Shown here in pieces: positions 640 to 10,617 of a stretch of 64,000 nucleotides of DNA. Both the position numbers and the translations under genes were made by a program. The notes under the pieces are model-generated. The model was not told the DNA's origin. It saw nothing but the letters and a program-made list of their open reading frames with translations, and did not search any database. Within the stretch, counting starts at the first letter, position 1; each line of letters begins with the position of its first letter. The stretch comes from Fistulifera solaris. Lineage: Eukaryota. Location of the stretch: positions 248,001 through 312,000 of the forward strand of contig AP026130.1 in the NCBI GenBank assembly GCA_030295235.1, read 5' to 3'.

Positions 640-1902
640 TTAACCATCCATCAAACGCGGTATCAAGTTGACTTTGGGAATGTGATCGAACCACAAATAA
701 TCGGCCACTTTGGATTGGGACGCCAGTGTTTCGGGTCCCGTCCCAATTTCGAGTCGCAAAAACCGACTTTTCGACAAGGTATCTTCAGCCGTGGGATTCA
801 ACAAAATGGTCGTGACCGAATCGTCCGTGACTTGGGATTGTCCCAAGAAACGACACAATCGAGGAATGCGTCCATTGATGCCATATAAGAAGCGGACCTG
901 GGTCATGGGAGTGACTGTCACGACCAACGGTGCCGTCCCGTGGGTGGCGGCGTATTTTGCACACGCCGTCGCGGCCGCTTCGTGTTCCAAAATCGTTTGC
1001 GAAAAGAAATTGGCAAAGTCGAGCGACGGTGGTAAATCCTTGATGAGGGATCGATCGGTATAGACTTTGAATTTGGGATCTTGGGGCAACGCAATGAATC
1101 CTTGTGGGTCAATGACGTATTGAGTGCGACGGTCCATGTCGACATTTTGGAGACCCCCCTTTTGGACGGCTTGGATGTCTTGAATTTCGGGAGATAAAGC
1201 AATAAGATCGAGTTTCTTGATTTTGGCCAATTGCCACAGTGGTTGATAGAGTGCTTGTAGAGTCGAATCGACATTGGCTTGGGATAACGCTCGCAGAAGA
1301 TCATCTTCCTGACATTGATTGGACGTATATTGATTCAGCATCGATTGCACACTGTACGGGAACGGCAATCCGAGTGCCGTGTTACTATTACGACGCGACG
1401 CCAGAGTCTCTACAAGATCGACCGCGAATTGAATATCACTGGTGGTAAATTGTTGAGGCAATCCCAAACACACAAAGGTGGGACCCGCTTGCGGTTTGGT
1501 TTTGGTGACCGACTCGATGGTCCCAAAAACGGCCTTGTTGAGCATATTGTTCAAATTGATGGTATCTACAACAATGGCATCTTTGTTCGTCCCGGATCCT
1601 TGCGCGAGTTCTTTTAATATTTGAGTTTGTTGCTGGCTGCGCAAGGGCAAGAGTGTCGGAGGAAGGGTCGAATCGACGCGATACGCGGTCGGGCGAATGG
1701 CGGGTCGATAGTCGGTGGCGGCAGCTATTTGGGGTTTTAATACGACGGTAGAAGCCATTCCCGCCAGCATTTGGCGTCGCGATGGTAGCATATCGAGTGC
1801 AGTGGTGGTTCTCGGGGTAGTGGTGGTGAAAGTTGAAAAACTCTGACTTGGAAGCGTCCATGAACTCCATGACAGTATGAATAATAACCAGTATGTTGAC
1901 AT
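640..1902 (-). CDS. Plastid (probably thylakoid-lumen) protein with a ChaN/TIKI-superfamily haem-binding-uptake-like domain
   Basis: Signal peptide MSTYWLLFILSW...SQS-F, a Thr-rich transit peptide, then twin-Arg SRRQMLAG and an AAA cleavage motif. The body resembles ChaN: ALGLPFP..QSMLNQY, YQPLWQLAK..LDLIAL, NFFSQTILEHEA, YGINGRIPR. Confidence 0.55.
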   Translation of the reverse strand: MSTYWLLFILSWSSWTLPSQSFSTFTTTTPRTTTALDMLPSRRQMLAGMASTVVLKPQIAAATDYRPAIRPTAYRVDSTLPPTLLPLRSQQQTQILKELAQGSGTNKDAIVVDTINLNNMLNKAVFGTIESVTKTKPQAGPTFVCLGLPQQFTTSDIQFAVDLVETLASRRNSNTALGLPFPYSVQSMLNQYTSNQCQEDDLLRALSQANVDSTLQALYQPLWQLAKIKKLDLIALSPEIQDIQAVQKGGLQNVDMDRRTQYVIDPQGFIALPQDPKFKVYTDRSLIKDLPPSLDFANFFSQTILEHEAAATACAKYAATHGTAPLVVTVTPMTQVRFLYGINGRIPRLCRFLGQSQVTDDSVTTILLNPTAEDTLSKSRFLRLEIGTGPETLASQSKVADYLWFDHIPKVNLIPRLMDG

Positions 1903-2309
1903 TCGGAGTGTGATCATCCTGAATAAGACTATCGATTGACTTAAAAATTGCATTTGATTGTGATGTAATATTGAAAAGATCCGGTGGATGATTCTATATC
2001 ATCGGCATGTGATTGTTGTCATGGTGGGCGTTTTTCGTTTTGGTTTGTTTTTGTTGAGGTTTTATTATTTCTCGTTGATCGGAGAACTGACAGACTGACG
2101 TCACAAGGAAAGGTGACTGGAACACAAACACAATTCATACTTAATTGTAAAGGTCACTTTCGGACATCTACCGGGACCTACTACTATCATATTTTTGGAC
2201 AAACGAGACGGAGTCGATCCTATGTCTGTCGTTGTGGTTCTCGATCTGTTGTAATCTAGAACGTCTTGTGTCCGTTGAGGGTCACTGAGCACTGAGCACG
2301 AACAAATAA

Positions 2310-2398
2310 CGAAATAAGGCAGTGGTGTAAAAATTATAACTACAAGTGTTACATCTACCACGGAGGCTTCCCCGTCTGTACTACACTCGGTTATTTCG
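2310..2398 (-). repeat. 3' LTR (89 bp)
   Basis: Identical to 9042-9130. Terminal inverted repeat CGAAATAA...TTATTTCG. Preceded on the minus strand by a purine tract. Confidence 0.95.
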
Positions 2399-2406
2399 GT
2401 CCCCTC
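2399..2406 (-). other. Polypurine tract of the retrotransposon
   Basis: The minus strand reads GAGGGGAC immediately before the 3' LTR. Confidence 0.75.
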
Positions 2407-2522
2407 ACGATGAGACCCGAGCTAGGGCTTCAACGTGTCCTTCATAACCGATAAACCCTTATTTCATGGAAAAACAACATAAAAACCATGACGATTCATT
2501 CATCGAATCCATCCTTCATCAT

Positions 2523-2592
2523 GTGGAAAATACATCAAAACCACACATCGACTTGTCCGTGGAAAATACGTCAAAACCACGTATCAAACTTG
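2523..2592. repeat. Two-copy ~36-bp tandem repeat in the element 3' UTR
   Basis: gtggaaaatacatcaaaaccacacatcgacttg at 2523 and gtggaaaatacgtcaaaaccacgtatcaaacttg at 2559. Confidence 0.8.
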
Positions 2593-2699
2593 AAACTTCA
2601 ATCACTGTACCTGGACGAAAAACTTATCCCCAGGAGGCTCATCCCATCGGAATAGTAAACATAACTACCCAACCAGTGCATCGGGACCTATCGCCTGCA

Positions 2700-5600
2700 T
2701 CACTGATGTAAAATACGCTTCACCAGTGGATCTCGTACATTCCCAGCTTGAATCTTCGTCAGAATATCTGCCAAATTCGTCTTCGTGAGGCTCGTAGGAT
2801 ACATCAACAATACCCATCGCAACTCGCTCACGTGCATAGTGATATGCCACCGAATTGGACTTCTTCTTCAGAACTGATTCAGGAATACTCGAGTTCTTGA
2901 TCACTGACATATTGTCACCTTTGACAACCGCAGGATCTTCTACCGGCACACCCATCATCTGTAGTTTGTACCGTAGACCTTCGATTAACTCGACCGCCGT
3001 TTTCATAGCACTAAACTCAGCACCAAATGTCGACGTCTCAATCAAGTTTGCTTCTTGCTGTACCATACTGTCAATGACCTGTTCAAATAGACCAAGACAC
3101 CTGTACGGGAACGACGAGTAACATGGTCACCCGCCAAGTCAGCATCAACGAAACACGTTATTTGCACAGGCTTACCCAATGGCTTTGGACAATCCGTTGG
3201 AATCATAGGCTTAGCATCTCGGTAAAAGTCATTCCAATCAGGTCTAGGTTGTCTGGCGTGCTCGACATACGAAGGATCGAACACAATCTTAGACCTTTCA
3301 TGTGACCTCAAATATGCAAAGACATGCACAACCGCAGCTAGATGGCCTTTCCTTGGCATTGCACTGTGAGACGCAAGCATCGAAACTTCACCACAAATAT
3401 CAACTCTTCCAAGCTCGACCATCCAGCCGTAAAACCCCTATTTGCGAGTGATAAAACTGGATTTCGTCGTCATCGCACTCCCGGCGATATGTCAAGCTCC
3501 GGACGGTACTTCGGTGGTAAAACACTTGGCGCCTTCTTCGGTAAAGCCTCATCTCGCTTTTCCAACCAAAGACAAACGTTTCGTATTGCTTCCTTCACAT
3601 ATTCATTCGAACTCATCGACCAACAAGGCTTTTCATCACCCGGGAATTGATGCTGACCAATCGTTGAACCCAAGTAGCGAGTTGGCTTGCCTATCGAACC
3701 TTCTTTCAGAAGAAAGTGTTGATCAAGCTTGTATAGAATAGCTTCCGGTGCCACAGAAACACACAGGATGTCATCCGTATAGACCAATACCAACTCGTAG
3801 TAACTAGTCCCATCCGGCTTTCTGTGCCGGCCGTATCCATACATCGTTATCCATTTCGACAAGGTGTAAAACTCAACGACTCATGCAAACACTCACTCAG
3901 ATATGACCTCCACGCAGCTCCAGAACTCTTCAGTCCGTAAAGAGCTTTCACGATTTTCGCCTTTCGACCTTTGAACTGTGGACCAAATTCGGCACCGCAA
4001 ATAATAAAGATTCGTTCTCGAACTGGTGCATTCAAGTACGCATTTCCAATATCTGCCGCCATAATGTCCAAATCGTTCAATGCCGCTAGTAGGAAGGCAA
4101 TCCGCACGCTTTCTCTCGATACAACACTAGCATAGGTAATCGAGCTCGGCGGATCCGTCATATGTCCCCCCTGCTGAGGGCGGGCCTTCCGTGTGAAATC
4201 TGGTTTTATATCAAAAACCATGTGAACCCCAATCTTGGTAAAACCAGCAGGATCGGGAGGCGTCTTCGTCAAGGATCTGAAACGCCTTAGCTACCGCCGC
4301 ATCTCTTCGCGAATCGCCTTCGCCCAAAAGTCAGTTCCCGTAGCGCGATCAATGCCAATGCTTCTTCGACTGTCTTTGGCAATGCGATCCCATATTTCTG
4401 AGTAACACGAAAGTAGCGCTTAGCCATCGCTTTGATGATCCTGGTCCTTCTCTTGAGCGTGTAGGGAACCCACCATGAGAAAGCAGGCTCCTCAGCAATC
4501 TGTCTCGCAACAGCAAATTCCGCTAACTGTAAAGGGTGAGACTGCTTTAGGTCTTTCAGTTTCTCCCAAGTAGTAGTGCCATCATTCCATAGACAACACA
4601 GCTTCCATCCCTTGGTAGTCCGCTTAGGATACTTTCGGTTGTTGTGGATCACGAATGCCTCTTCATGCGGAACCGCGTCGACTCTTTCTTGTAGTCCACT
4701 ATTTCCTTTAGGACATAACTTCGCACGCCCATGGTCATCCACTTCGGCATAGATGGCTTCAGCGATCTGATTCGCATGATAAGCCTCCACTTCACCCGTA
4801 TCAAATTCAATCTCATACAGAGCGGTATCGAGCAAAGGGTTAGGATGGTACCGGCCAATAGGATTCCCGTCTTGATCGTGCTTCCGACCTTTAACCGTGC
4901 CGTCACGACATCGAGTCCCCTTGCGGAAGCATTACCCTTGCTGAGACATATTGATTGTATGAATCGTAATCAAACTCATCAGCTTCCTTTATCTCGGGAA
5001 CCGGGATCTTGCGACTCGGTCGAACATAGTATTCCAACTCTGGGGTGCGCTTCGTCTTCCGGTATCTCGGTCGGATCCAAGGGCATGGCTCGGTCCTTCA
5101 GCTTTTGCTCCAACGTCTCGCGTGAACTTTGCCTTCAACTCAGCAACGGCTTGGCTATTCTGTTCCTCAACTGACAAAGGGAAAACACTTGTACGGGAAA
5201 TCGGTCGACCAGAAGCGGGTAGGATCCTAGCACATAGGACATCACCGACATCGGAAACTGGGACCAAGGTATCTTCCAAGATGCTTCCTTTCCATATTTT
5301 CGTCTTGGTGAGATAAACCAAACCCAATCATACCAACCGAACTCACAAATGTGTGAAATATCAGCGGTGTCCCCTGTCAAAAGCGTCTGCGGCACTTCAC
5401 CATCTAACTGTCTTATGGAAAGACAAGAGTGGCTCCGAACATACGCGTGGTAGACCAAACATAGGTCCCATAGACAACGTGGGGAATTCGTGCGAATCAT
5501 AGCACGCCTATACATCCTTTTCAATTCACGAATGCCGTCTTCAGCGAGGTTGGCGTTAGCGGTGTGCTTCGATCGGCCTAATGGTCGCTTGCACTCGTTA

Positions 5601-6760
5601 AGCCTTTCGCTTAAACTCTCCTGCTGTCAACTCTCCGGCATTGTCCGGAATTAAAGTGTGAGGGACTCCGACGACGAAACAAGTTGTCAAGCGTGTAATG
5701 GGCATCGCTTTTCTTTTCAATCGGGTCCACACATATCCAGTGAAAGGGGGTGCAATACACAGCCGCATATTTGTTACCCAGCAGTGAGACACATGTACCG
5801 ACCAGAATGTCGCAGTACATCTCCGTATTAAGCCGAGGATAACGCAGCTGGTACGCCAAATGGTTTGAGACGGCAGCGTTCCAGAGACTGTCGAGAAGTC
5901 CCGAATTGCCCGTTGCGTCGTTCGCTGGAGGCGTTAAGCCTAGCCGTCTCGAATCCCTATACTCCATCGTTTTGCCAAATCTTCGGGTGTGACATATGCT
6001 TTCCGGTTCTTCGTTGAGATTGCGGCACTTGTAAGCGAAGCAGCATACGAATCGATGTCAAAAGCTGCCGAACCGCTCAGCTGAAATCACAGCAATCGAA
6101 CGAGCTGGCGGGACAAGCGTGCGCTCACTCGTAACCGAACCAAGCATCCTCTGTCCCCCTAAACGAAGCTCAGAGTCAAGGGAAACACGCAATGAGTCCT
6201 CATCATGCTGGCGTGGTTAGAATCCATAGGATCCCAGAACGACTTCGGAGGTGACGTTTACATGGATGCAGTCAACGTCCGAGCTCAGTTCTTTGTCGGT
6301 CGGTCGGCGAGTGGGGAAATATGAAATAGTCCCCATCAGTTTCAAAGGAATCTGGAGAGCTGGCTCAGAAAACAAAATAGAATGGCTCTCCGGGCGACGT
6401 TGTTCCGGGAGGTAGGTGTAGGAGAGGAGTTTCATTCACAACGACTTGGTTGTGCCGAAGTTGAGCGGGGCTGATCAAGTGTCGATGCATGTTTGAAAAG
6501 TAGAGTGACTGGTGAAAGAACAAAACGTGGGTTTGCAGCGTCGTGGGGCAATCGTATGCAACCGCAACTGTACCAATGGGAACTTTGGTCACTTTCCCAA
6601 GAGAACTAATGAATGGTTCCACCGAAACTGTTTCGCCGGTATCATACACGAGAACCGCGTCTTTACCGAACGAGCAAGTATCACAGTGCGAGTCCAATTC
6701 AGCTCTACCAGGAGTCTGTTGTCGCATTGCCGCCGCAACTCGCTGCACCGCCAGTCAAGG
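2700..6760 (-). CDS. pol: Copia pol polyprotein (aspartic protease, integrase, reverse transcriptase, RNase H), split by many frameshifts
   Basis: Protease ELDSHCDTC. Integrase core TLIPDNAGELT and LAEDGIRELKR, followed by a KGWKLCCLWNDGTTTWEKLKDLK chromo-like segment. RT motifs ADIGNAYL, KALYGLKSSG, LVYTDDIL. RNase H motifs FVDADLAGD, ETSTFGAEF, GDNMSV, YHYARE. The exact 3' end is uncertain. Confidence 0.9.
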
Positions 6761-6768
6761 TCGTCGAC

Positions 6769-8162
6769 TCATGCGGTTACCTGTCGACTCAACCACATCG
6801 TCACTATCGGAGTCAGCCGTCTCAACAGCTGAAGCATTTCGCTCTCGGACTTAGCCCTTTCACGAGCATTGCGAACTTCTTCCTGTTTCTCTTTCGGTAA
6901 CTTGATCCACTCCTTCCATTTGTAGTACGGGACACCATCTTTGCCTCTCTTTGCTTTTCCGCCCTTTCCTTTACCAGATTTGCCGCCACCTTTCTTGTTG
7001 TTACCGCCGCCAGAATTTCTGGTAACCGAAGAAATGTTGCGAGTGGAACCACGGGTCTTTGCTGCATCTTGCTTCTTTCTATCAACCTGCTCAGCCAAGT
7101 AGTTCATCGCGTTTTCGAAGGTACTTTCCAACACAGCATCAGCCCGGACGCTCGGCGCTCATCTTTAGTTCATCTGCCCAGATGTTGTCTAGAAAGATTC
7201 GCACCTTCCTATCTTCAGTCATCACCTCACCCGCCTCTTCCAAGTCCAAGAAAGCCAAGTTAAGCTTCTGACAGTAGTCTTCAAAGGTAAAGTTACGCCT
7301 TTCCATCATAGAAGACTGTCGAAAGGACTCGGTCAGCATGAGCAATGTTGCGCTTCTGATAAGAACGCCCCATATAGTGAGTCTTCAAGGCAAAATAAGC
7401 GGCGTCCATCTTTGCTGTAAGCAAAAGGCTTAACCCAATTCCAAGCTGGTCCACCGTGTGAAACCTGACGAATAACGGCTCCACAGCATCATATTGTCTT
7501 CTTCATACTGGTCTCCATCATGGCGAAAGTCACGACGAACAAGTTCCGACATAGCATCAGGGACACCGAAACCTGGATCATCAACCCCTTCGATTCCATC
7601 GGGATCGACATGCTCCCGCACAAGGTGCGACAAAGGCGCACCATAAGCTCCAAGGTGATTGCCAAGTACCTCGTCGATGTCTTCAATCGTCTTCCGAGCG
7701 TTTTCCACCTTCAACAACACATCGATCTTAGGAAGATCTTTGTTGGTCTCACGCATCGGCGAATGCGCTCACGCGAAAGTCCAAGCGTTCCAATCGAGCA
7801 AGAGTTGCAAAGCCAGGAACAAACTTCAGCTGCAAGCGGTGCAAGTGGAAAGGAAGTAGCGAAGCTGACGAACACGGAGCTCAAGATTGACTCCGATCGC
7901 AATACCACGGTTCGGAATCATCGCAGGTACCATCGGTGCAGCCTCCGCTCCAACCGCAGGAGGGACAAAGGCTGGGTTTGGAATCAAACCCCCAGGGTTT
8001 CGAATCTTCGTAAAGATCTCCTGAACGTACTTATCACTCCGGTGCGTCAAGTCGTCAAAGCGCGGTAATGCCTTGGCCATTGATGGCCTGACGAGCTGCC
8101 GCATCCTCAATAAAGAGGACATCACGGAGGTAGTTGTTGAATGCAGCAAGATTGGCTGCCAT
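6769..8162 (-). CDS. gag: Copia gag, frameshifted
   Basis: ATG at 8162 (MAANLAAFNNYLRD...). CoDi-gag-like segments PLSHLVRE, RNFTFEDYCQKL, KVRIFLDNI, FENAMNYL, and YYKWKEWIKLPKEKQEEVR. Confidence 0.8.
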
Positions 8163-9020
8163 CGTAAACAAGGAGAAAGGAGAGAAAGTTCACAAATCGG
8201 AATGCGAGGGAGATAAAAGCGAAGCGGCGTTTCTTTTTCTTTTTGTGTGCGAAACTGCATCGTCGCTAAAACGTTTGCACGAAATTCCGACCCCTTTACT
8301 CTCCCTTCGAGTGTTGTTTACTGTAGGGAACTCCAGTGTAAAGCGCCAAAAGTGCCCTTATGTACGTAAGGCCATTGTACACACTAGGCCCTACAGAACA
8401 ATCGTCCACACCCTCATTTAGCTCTGAATCCGTTCATAGTCAAAAGACAGATCGGCCTAAACAGTATAGAACACGACCTCGGACAGGCCAAAATACACGC
8501 ACAACACGATTTCACTTGCGCAACTTCTCGCGAAATCCGACGATGTTGTGCTTTGACCGCCTCTGGAGGAAAAACATCCCTCCACCATGAGGACTTCGCA
8601 ACAATCGGGTGAATAATTCACTCATTTATGTATTCTAGCATTAAAGGTGTATTAGCATGTATACGAGGCGTCCCCCATATTTTACCGACAAGTGACATAA
8701 TCACTGTGGTCCGATGCATCCATCGACAGAGCCAGAACTGTCAATAAAGGAAAGCAACGGTGCTTCATAAGCGCTAATTACCTCACAAACCCAGCCATCT
8801 AATCAAGACATATGATTAACATGATGACTCCATGGGGTCGACCTTTACATAAGGTCATGATCTCACATTTTCATGTGGACAATTGTCGACTTCCGACAAC
8901 GCCGAGATCATCTCCTTGACCACTCAAGCCCAACAGTTAGTAACACATACATAAGGAACATTACTCTTACGATATTACCATTGTTTTCCTGTGTATTTCA
9001 TCGTTTCAGAGGGATTCATC

Positions 9021-9041
9021 GCGAAACCCCGGTTTTTAACC
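9021..9041 (-). other. Putative primer-binding site, non-canonical
   Basis: Directly inside the 5' LTR the minus strand reads GGTTAAAAACCGGGGTTTCGC. It lacks the TGG that pairs with the tRNA CCA end. Confidence 0.45.
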
Positions 9042-9130
9042 CGAAATAAGGCAGTGGTGTAAAAATTATAACTACAAGTGTTACATCTACCACGGAGGCT
9101 TCCCCGTCTGTACTACACTCGGTTATTTCG
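9042..9130 (-). repeat. 5' LTR (89 bp)
   Basis: Identical to 2310-2398. Followed by ATAA (9131-9134), matching ATAA at 2306-2309. Confidence 0.95.
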
Positions 9131-9303
9131 ATAAACCGTTGCGGCGATGGTGAAGAGTTCGCAACGGGAGACGAGAGGCATTATTCCTCTTTCCTTTTAT
9201 TTTTGGACATTTTGCATTGATTGATCTCTGTTGTTGTGAATATATAATTATTTTCTTTGGCTGAAAAAGGATCATAACTTTGCAGACGACTCGATTCACA
9301 AGA

Positions 9304-10617
9304 ATGCTATCATTCCGAATTATTCTGTTCGCATGCGCTTTCTATTGGACACCATCTTCCGGTCAATCGTCGAAACGGCATGTTTCCATTCTCAATGACT
9401 CGACGTCCCTCAAAGCGCAAGTGAATTGGGTGCATCCCCAAACGGGCGACCGCGTGCCTCTCTCACAAGAATCACTCCGTCCGGGAGGAGAATTTCCGCT
9501 CGATACCTTTGTGGGTCATGAATTGGAATTGCAAGAAATCGATTGTTCGAACGCCTGTCGTCGCACTTCCTTTGTCGTTTCCGAACGCCATCCTGCACTC
9601 GTTCGTTTAGTCGACAATTTTGAACTCGTTTGGCAAGACCCTGCTACCAAAACAACACAAGCCGAGACGTTAGTACAAGACTGTCGAAAACAGGCCCAAC
9701 AACAACCCGATCCCTTGAACTATCTTTCCCAGTGCGTCGAACAAGGCATGGCGGCCGCTTTGGAACAAATTCAACAAGACATTGCCTTTCAAACATCCGT
9801 ACGGACCGATATTGCGCATATGCTCGAAAATTATACCTGTTTGGATGGTTCTTTGGAGTCAACGCCCGATGTTCGTCAAGAAGAATGGCAACATCAACCC
9901 GGTGAACCGGTACTCCAGGTACACATCAAACACGAACGACCCGCCAGTCGCATTCATATGATTGAAGATTTCATTCGTCCCGATGAATGCAAAGCGATGG
10001 AAGAAGCGGCCGCCGTCACATTGCATCGGGCCACCGTCGCCGATGGCAAAGGAGGTTCCCGCGTTTCGGAAAATCGCAAAGCGATGCAAGCCGGTATTAC
10101 CGTGCCCTGGGACAAAGAAATGGACGATCATCCGATTGCTCGATTGAGTCGGCGGGTGTACGATTATACCAATCATGTGTTGGGCTTGAATATTGATGAA
10201 TTTGGACAAGAAGATCTCATGTCCATTCAGTACTTTGGCCGTGGACGCAACGATACGACGCCGGATCGGTATACGCCCCATTGCGATGGAGATTGCACGG
10301 GACAACCGCACAAATCCGGCACGCGGATGGCGACCTTGGTCATGTACTGTGACGTGGCGACCGATGGGGGTCATACCAACTTTCGCAATGCGGGCGTGCA
10401 CGTCAAACCGACCACCGGAGCCGGCATTTTCTTTTCGTACATTGATCCGGACACACTCATCATGGATTCGGGATATACGGAACATTCGGGGTGTCCGGTG
10501 TTTGAAGGAACGAAACGCATTGTCACGCAGTGGGTGCGGTTGGGTGTGGATACGGAAAATCCGTGGGATAGTTACAATACGTTGGGAATCAAAAAGTCGT
10601 TGGCGGAGGAGGAATAA
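9304..10617 (+). CDS. Secretory-pathway prolyl 4-hydroxylase (2OG-Fe(II) dioxygenase) with an N-terminal VHL-beta-like domain
   Basis: Signal peptide MLSFRIILFACAFYW. P4H motifs IEDFIRPDEC, YTPHCD (HxD), RMATLVMY, GGHTNF, EHSGCPVFEGTKRIVTQWVR. Confidence 0.88.
   Translation: MLSFRIILFACAFYWTPSSGQSSKRHVSILNDSTSLKAQVNWVHPQTGDRVPLSQESLRPGGEFPLDTFVGHELELQEIDCSNACRRTSFVVSERHPALVRLVDNFELVWQDPATKTTQAETLVQDCRKQAQQQPDPLNYLSQCVEQGMAAALEQIQQDIAFQTSVRTDIAHMLENYTCLDGSLESTPDVRQEEWQHQPGEPVLQVHIKHERPASRIHMIEDFIRPDECKAMEEAAAVTLHRATVADGKGGSRVSENRKAMQAGITVPWDKEMDDHPIARLSRRVYDYTNHVLGLNIDEFGQEDLMSIQYFGRGRNDTTPDRYTPHCDGDCTGQPHKSGTRMATLVMYCDVATDGGHTNFRNAGVHVKPTTGAGIFFSYIDPDTLIMDSGYTEHSGCPVFEGTKRIVTQWVRLGVDTENPWDSYNTLGIKKSLAEEE

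Follow-up and report, generated by a model that had tools for sequence, protein, structure and literature searches.

Introduction

Integrases of the retroviral type are, to our knowledge, taken to join a CA-3' end almost without exception. The locus described here raises the question of whether a retrotransposon family with long terminal repeats (LTRs) can do without it. The locus lies in a 64,000-nucleotide stretch of the Fistulifera solaris genome (contig AP026130.1, positions 248,001 to 312,000, forward strand; hereafter the window), which holds a Ty1/copia element of 6,821 bp on the minus strand, with pol in the order protease, integrase, reverse transcriptase, then RNase H (PR-IN-RT-RH) and with ATAA on both flanks. 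We confirmed that the LTRs of this element end in CG on both sides and that its insertion made a 4-bp target-site duplication (TSD). It is probable, in our view, that the element represents a recently mobile CoDi-type Ty1/copia family, primed by half of a tRNA-Lys, whose own integrase joins G-3' ends as a trait of its lineage.

Termini and target-site duplication

The two LTRs (2310-2398 and 9042-9130) are identical in 89 of 89 positions, each running from CGAAATAA to TTATTTCG, and these two ends form a perfect 8-bp inverted repeat at which the identity of the LTRs stops exactly. ATAA stands at 2306-2309 and again at 9131-9134, and the match fails at 5 bp. An earlier note, made from the sequence of the window, had described these CG...CG repeats, a polypurine tract (PPT) directly beside the CG (GAGGGGAC at 2399-2406, minus strand) and a duplication of 4 rather than 5 bp, and each of these was borne out.

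The 28 matches to the LTR in the genome resolve into paired LTRs at 13 loci, a solo LTR and a copy (L042, C1:2675150) that has lost its 3' LTR after five bases. Nearly all of the matches (27 of 28) start with CGAAATAA and 25 end with TTATTTCG; of the other three, two still finish in CG and differ by a single internal base, and the third, from a diverged copy, is ambiguous. When the boundary was shifted from -4 to +4 and TSD lengths of 3-6 were scanned at the 14 testable loci, the CG..CG boundary gave an exact 4-bp duplication at 13 and a duplication of 5 or 6 bp at none, so the other copies carry the termini and TSD of the window element. The best alternative boundary fitted 5 of the 14 loci, leaving aside two 3-bp subsets of the same 4-bp duplication, and non-cognate flank pairs, used as a control, matched in 4 of 156 cases.

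Four public short-read runs from four studies were compared as assembled contigs. One contig from run X1, which may be the source strain and is then a test of the assembly and not independent support, covers 1800-2368 with no difference from the window and so agrees with the left junction. A contig from X2, a wetland metagenome from another study, joins 2305 to 9131 and reads as the empty allele that the earlier note had predicted: it skips 6,825 bases, which is the element plus one 4-bp copy, and the four letters fit either side. At the edges of the LTR, loose contig ends at 2310 (X1) and at 9041-9042 (X2, X4) mark further junctions. On contig C12 the paired locus is empty as well, but it has a small deletion at the site and thus does not fix the TSD.

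It could be argued that the true ends are TG..CA, or the true TSD 5 bp, and that the assembly misleads, as it contains many small indels: against each of nine near-identical copies the window shows 41-83 substitutions together with 54-73 indel events, of which a third to half fall in homopolymers. The boundary scan, the empty allele and the difference-free short-read junction nevertheless refute this, and the primer-binding site (PBS) and PPT both adjoin CG, so that we give an artefact practically no credence. Sequencing error at the ends, which the earlier note had judged unlikely along with a single mutation, was rejected on the short-read contigs, and the 28 LTR matches speak against chance.

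The integrase would thus accept CG-3' ends, which the junctions strongly argue for. In 23 of 26 target positions the base was a purine (at -3) or a pyrimidine (at +3) (p ~4e-5 against 0.5, for a pattern chosen post hoc), in keeping with a symmetric integration complex.

Structure, age and coding integrity

Pol in the order PR-IN-RT-RH, a reverse transcriptase (RT) of the RVT_2 type, and direct LTRs with PBS, PPT and TSD place the element in Ty1/copia; the TG...CA termini usual there, to which exceptions are known, are absent. The features of the element are as follows.

2306..2309, no strand: copy of the target-site duplication ATAA, single in the empty allele
2310..2398, minus strand: 3' LTR, 89 bp, CGAAATAA...TTATTTCG (direct-repeat comparison)
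2399..2406, minus strand: end of the PPT, GAGGGGAC, adjoining the 3' LTR (sequence)
2703..3437, minus strand: C-terminal part of pol, presumably RNase H, in pieces (tblastn with the uninterrupted relatives P0122, P0003 and P0004)
3470..4290, minus strand: reverse transcriptase, in pieces (Pfam RVT_2, E=5.9e-11 over 3850-4290)
5135..6057, minus strand: integrase core (D, D, E), in pieces (motifs; profile alignment to the integrases of prototype foamy virus (PFV), Ty3 and mouse mammary tumour virus (MMTV))
6392..6748, minus strand: start of pol with the protease-type motif ELDSH (94% identity to P0122 residues 1-119)
6770..8170, minus strand: presumed gag (ORF1) region, in pieces (position only)
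9028..9041, minus strand: PBS, GGTTAAAAACCGGG, immediately following the 5' LTR (13 of 14 bases here complementary to positions 27-40 of host tRNA-Lys(UUU))
9042..9130, minus strand: 5' LTR, 89 bp, identical to the 3' LTR (direct-repeat comparison)
9131..9134, no strand: copy of the target-site duplication ATAA (junctions and empty allele)

The RNase H label is our assumption from position and motifs, and that of the protease is likewise what we take the ELDSH region to be; neither region has a Pfam match, and the presumed gag has no significant one. The pol pieces align along their length with uninterrupted database Pol proteins of 1,346-1,348 residues.

The insertions are young, as none of 12 LTR pairs contains a substitution and three differ by a 1-base gap. 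Contigs from three or four of the short-read runs share the same indels against the window, and close relatives have an uninterrupted Pol, so most of the frameshifts seen in the family are probably errors of the long-read assembly, a conclusion that concerns the family as a whole and not any single copy. This bears on the proposal that the integrase of a co-resident TG..CA family moves these elements in trans and tolerates their CG ends. The proposal draws on the fact that all copies examined appear frameshifted in the assembly, and TG..CA families with 4-bp TSDs do occur in the same genome. Against it, most of the breaks are probably not real, and both the primer tRNA and the integrase clade, which includes C-starting relatives, are the family's own; we consider mobilisation in trans very improbable.

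The element sits between two divergently oriented genes and so interrupts a short two-way promoter region: an open reading frame (ORF) of 437 residues (640-1953, minus strand) starts ~350 bp from it, and the ATG of a 2OG-Fe(II) oxygenase gene lies ~170 bp from it (window position 9304). At the start of the window, which truncates them, open frames (positions 1-561) contain several repeats resembling CCHC zinc knuckles.

Probable priming by a half tRNA

Drosophila copia and yeast Ty5 are Ty1/copia elements primed by half tRNAs. The 14 bases after the 5' LTR complement positions 27-40 of both nuclear tRNA-Lys(UUU) genes that we found, with 14 of 14 bases matching in two copies of the family, 13 in ten and 12 in one. 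This match points to a half-tRNA primer of the copia/Ty5 type: the PBS is complementary to the anticodon arm as far as about position 40 and adjoins the LTR, and the tRNA matched is tRNA-Lys(UUU), not initiator tRNA-Met. Self-priming of the Tf1 type was rejected, the longest complement of the PBS in the element's own LTR being 6 bases. Since the PBS abuts the LTR, the U5 boundary is fixed independently of the TSD and a blunt U5 end is implied, as for Ty1 (PMC8487063).

Other Copia families of the genome (among L112-L149) have half tRNA-Ile(AAU) and half tRNA-Asn(GUU) sites in the same register. The tRNA-Ile(AAU) sites carry C opposite A34, which is expected if A34 is inosine. One further family has a putative half tRNA-iMet site, judged by its motif. 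The tRNA genes, with a flanking gene, stand on the contig pairs C11/C12, C19/C20, C5/C6 and C15/C16 with ~88% identity at the locus checked, which suggests two diverged subgenomes or haplotypes.

Termini of related families

The earlier note had attributed the CG ends to one lineage. The ends are real, but the trait turned out to be wider than that. We compared 38 other RT-bearing loci of the genome, several rows of which are unresolved, and 35 metagenome loci. Automatic LTR calling left 9 of the 38 unresolved and gave ~5 wrong rows, and those were judged by eye. Genome families with 4-bp TSDs have TG..CA, TA..TA, CA..TG (four copies resolved) or AC..GT (two copies) termini, and those with 5-bp TSDs have TG..CA, TA..TA, TG..TA or AG..CT (one copy). 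Among the metagenome loci, whose termini were set by PPT and PBS alone, without a TSD, L086 and L099 have CG..CG, L091 a CG end, L077 a CG start and L090 a CA start, only one end being visible in the last three; the remaining loci include TG and TA starts. Elsewhere, we found one short related contig, which lacks the ends, in a genome contig collection, and no relative in a viral contig collection, where only chance matches of 16-18 bases appeared.

Several individual loci may be recorded here. L138, L139 and L146 (contigs C2, C3 and C4) belong to the AC...GT family with 4-bp TSDs, and L138 has tandem LTR copies at its 3' end. L147 (C7:1291960-1301950) is a distant Copia with AG...CT termini and a 5-bp TSD, L123 (C33:824610-834600) is a Copia whose insertion lies within a tandem array made up of short units of the GCACTT/GCACAAC type, and L118 (C7:1012000-1021990) is an 8.3-kb TG..CA element with a 5-bp TSD, nested in the RT region of a copy of the CG family.

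Trees were built from 24 of 52 RT-RH rows and from 23 integrase (IN) rows, mostly with one or two rows per family and with the long-branch AG..CT row excluded. The window family clusters with L077 and L090 in both trees (support 100/99), and the neighbour of this clade is a TG..CA family (91/96 and 97/97). These nearest clade-mates, where the start of the LTR is visible, also begin with C (L077 with CG, L090 with CA), and in the case of L077 the C-start is retained between elements only ~58-68% identical in Pol. L086 and L091 cluster with the CA..TG family in the integrase tree (100/99), a grouping that the RT-RH tree leaves unresolved. LTRs with a terminal G thus fall into two integrase clades, both of which contain CG and CA members, in addition to the AC..GT and AG..CT families. 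A single origin of CG..CG was rejected in both trees (p-AU, approximately unbiased test, < 1e-6). It follows that what these elements share is a G at the 3' terminus, acquired once or twice, and that the base next to it may be either C or T.

The same data can be read as a relaxed specificity, in which the 4-bp CoDi-clade integrases largely ignore the last two bases, the ends drift and the loop residue Asn, discussed below, marks descent only. The same large clade does hold TG..CA, TA..TA, AC..GT, CA..TG and CG..CG ends, integrases with Trp at that loop position span three end types, the CG rows do not form one clade, and in Ty1 the CA specificity of the integrase is lost at millimolar Mn2+ (PMC8487063). 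However, the non-canonical ends are symmetric, with inverted repeats of 4-9 bp in the CA..TG, AC..GT, TA..TA and AG..CT copies (3 bp in one) and of 8 bp in the window element, and free drift would not preserve such symmetry. The near-constancy of the LTR start among the 28 matches and the persistence of the C-start in L077 also speak against drift, and we hold the relaxed reading to be rather unlikely.

A PPT ending GGGGAC as a marker of non-canonical ends was also considered and rejected, as TG- and TA-starting relatives have GGGGAC too; in relatives, PPT ends of the GAGGGGAC type precede LTRs starting with TG, TA, CA and CG and, as GGGGAC, with AC.

Integrase and a candidate specificity residue

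The window copy of the integrase is in pieces, and the fold was therefore judged from a predicted model of the clade-mate P0138, from L077 (predicted local distance difference test, pLDDT, 81.6), for which Foldseek gives retroviral integrases, with PFV integrase as the top match (E=3.7e-9). On this model the enzyme is a DDE integrase of retroviral fold. An HHCC zinc finger was not seen by eye in P0004 or P0138, nor was there a Pfam match; a small helical domain is modelled at the N-terminus of the P0138 integrase.

In other copies of the family, HTPNANLAE can be read within single segments as the loop that precedes the catalytic Glu. In PFV integrase, Q215 directly contacts the DNA end. By profile alignment, the residue five before the catalytic Glu lines up with the Gln following the conserved Pro of the PFV, Ty3 and MMTV enzymes. 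P214 and Q215 of PFV are equivalent to P145 and Q146 of HIV-1, and an inhibitor that they contact touches the terminal CA as well (PMC2920056; PMC7912079). We observed Asn at this position in all nine C-starting or G-ending rows, from six families, and in no row starting with T or A. Of the 12 rows of the same large clade that start with T or A, 11 have Trp or Phe; in the remaining one, L135, a frameshift spoils the reading, and another alignment gives Trp. In the group with 5-bp TSDs the residue is Gln in three rows with TG..CA ends, His in the rows with TA..TA and TG..TA ends, and misread in one row.

This Asn is the likeliest determinant of the G end, as a hypothesis from correlation. We can only tentatively, and at less than an even chance, extend it to the view that diatom Copia integrases switched from A-3' to G-3', and separately to T-3', more than once through the residue equivalent to HIV-1 Q146, with Gln or Trp accompanying A ends, His accompanying TA ends in the 5-bp group and Asn accompanying G ends, and with each family using its own half tRNA (Lys, Ile, Asn or iMet). 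Two points count against a determining role of the residue. The Asn correlation amounts to only one or two evolutionary changes, and kin share residues; and Trp-type integrases accompany CA, TA and GT ends, so that the loop residue cannot explain all of the variation in the ends. An explanation of CG by loss of the Gln in a WQN motif was rejected, as the AC..GT family has WQN and one TG..CA family has WSN.

Proposed mechanism

In the mechanism that we propose, the 5' half of the host's tRNA-Lys(UUU), which ends in the anticodon stem at position 40, would prime minus-strand synthesis, as its match to the PBS suggests. As the primer site adjoins the LTR, the U5 end of the cDNA would be blunt and end in CG. 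Plus-strand synthesis presumably starts at the GAGGGGAC tract beside the other CG, where a trimming of two bases is possible. The element's own retroviral-fold DDE integrase would then join both G-3' ends with a 4-bp stagger, the junctions being observed and the action of the enzyme deduced from them, and would choose its target with a weak and symmetric bias towards purine at -3 and pyrimidine at +3. The G end would be a lineage trait that evolved with the integrase, both ends having changed together as an inverted repeat. The earlier note had proposed that the integrase accepts CG-3' ends and cuts with a 4-bp stagger; the junctions support this, although the stagger is not new, being known from CoDi3 and CoDi4.

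Several observations weigh against this account and were taken into consideration. The mechanism is drawn from sequence, with the cDNA ends and the primer deduced from it. No family ORF in the stretches examined exceeds ~370 residues and all 15 stretches are frameshifted in the assembly, so that the coding capacity of any one copy can only be presumed. One diverged, internally duplicated paired copy on contig C33 has no TSD and a 3' LTR that starts with CA (L041, C33:438238, 86-90% identical, with a large internal duplication). In 10 of the 13 copies with a PBS the mismatch is an A opposite C32 of the tRNA, which could come from a modified C32 copied by the RT or from drift; a second tRNA-Lys gene with T32 was not found in the genome by one pattern search, and the Rfam tRNA search of the genome scored 63 of 1,922 candidates. 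The way in which the metagenome termini were set, at three loci from one end, limits their weight. Finally, the RT-RH data reject monophyly of all C-starting rows (p-AU 0.018) and the IN data do not (0.09), in a test for which the grouping was named after the first tree had been seen.

Comparison with known elements

No description of CG..CG LTRs was found in the literature searched; Repbase, GyDB and some supplements were beyond the search and may hold a precedent. Nothing relevant to LTR termini appeared in the available parts of PMC2774666, PMC12130899 and 10.1101/2025.10.24.684338. The same literature gave no precedent for an 87-89-bp LTR, for symmetric G-ended termini in two integrase clades, for the half tRNA-Lys site or for the candidate residue.

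In Ty1, concerted integration required CA at physiological metal levels (PMC8487063). The diatom families described here are young and multi-copy and integrate G-ended and T-ended DNA precisely, against the near-rule of CA-3'. If the specificity has indeed been switched, they would form a natural allelic series showing how the CA rule is encoded and escaped. In practical terms, the window family would escape LTR finders that require TG..CA ends, one of the seven plant motifs, TSDs of 5 bp or an LTR length of at least 100 bp, settings quoted in 10.1101/137141 and PMC6317226, and diatom transposon counts are for this reason probably too low.

The presumed priming site resembles that of the half-tRNA-primed Ty1/copia elements, in which the PBS is complementary to the anticodon stem-loop and follows directly after the LTR, and the difference is that the primer here would be tRNA-Lys(UUU). 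Half-molecule primers, made by cleavage in the anticodon stem, are described for plant Met and Ile tRNAs (PMC6317226), and internal tRNA-Arg or tRNA-iMet sites for Candida elements (PMC4139406); the literature searched, as far as available, did not mention a primer made of half a tRNA-Lys or half a tRNA-Asn.

Non-canonical ends are known from plant Copia elements, among them Tos17 (TG..GA), AtRE1 (TA..TA), TARE1 (TA..CA) and the motifs TGTT and AACA (10.1101/137141, PMC5659011). The LTR_retriever survey of 50 plant genomes listed seven non-canonical motifs with an invariable first T (10.1101/137141), to which AA..CA is a separately reported exception (PMC5659011). These plant elements are, like the window family, mostly Copia and have short LTRs. 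However, they mostly have one end altered and mostly 5-bp TSDs, whereas in the window family both ends are altered symmetrically and the joined 3' base is G. The Errantivirus/Zam clade of gypsy elements has AG..TT or AG..CT ends (PMC3601003) and is similar in being an entire clade without TG..CA, but it belongs to the Ty3/gypsy superfamily and its LTRs start with A and not with C.

The closest likeness is with the CoDi3 and CoDi4 lineages, compared by tabulated features. In these, most copies have 4-bp TSDs and LTRs go down to 112 bp (PMC8147415, Tables S10 and S11), Blackbeard has the 4-bp TSD TTCC, TG/CA is absent in CoDi3.2, CoDi4.2 and CoDi4.3, and LTR lengths of 153-844 bp are reported (Maumus et al. 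2009, PMC2806351). The window family shares with CoDi3/CoDi4 the Copia domain order, a length of ~6.3-7.7 kb and the 4-bp TSD, with CoDi4.2-4.4 the short LTRs (112-163 bp there) and with CoDi3.2, CoDi4.2 and CoDi4.3 the missing TG/CA; its relatives are CoDi-like in every feature compared, and the database cluster of one of them is labelled as diatom. The motifs tabulated for CoDi3/CoDi4 (TGCA, TACA, TGTA, TATA, TGAG, TGGA, TGAT and one TTCG) all start with T and none is CG..CG (Filloramo et al. 2021, PMC8147415), and the shortest LTR listed has 112 bp as against 87-89 bp in the window family. The family is thus most like CoDi3/CoDi4, from which the 4-bp TSD was already known, and what is unusual in it is the C at the start and the G at the end of its LTRs, together with their length.

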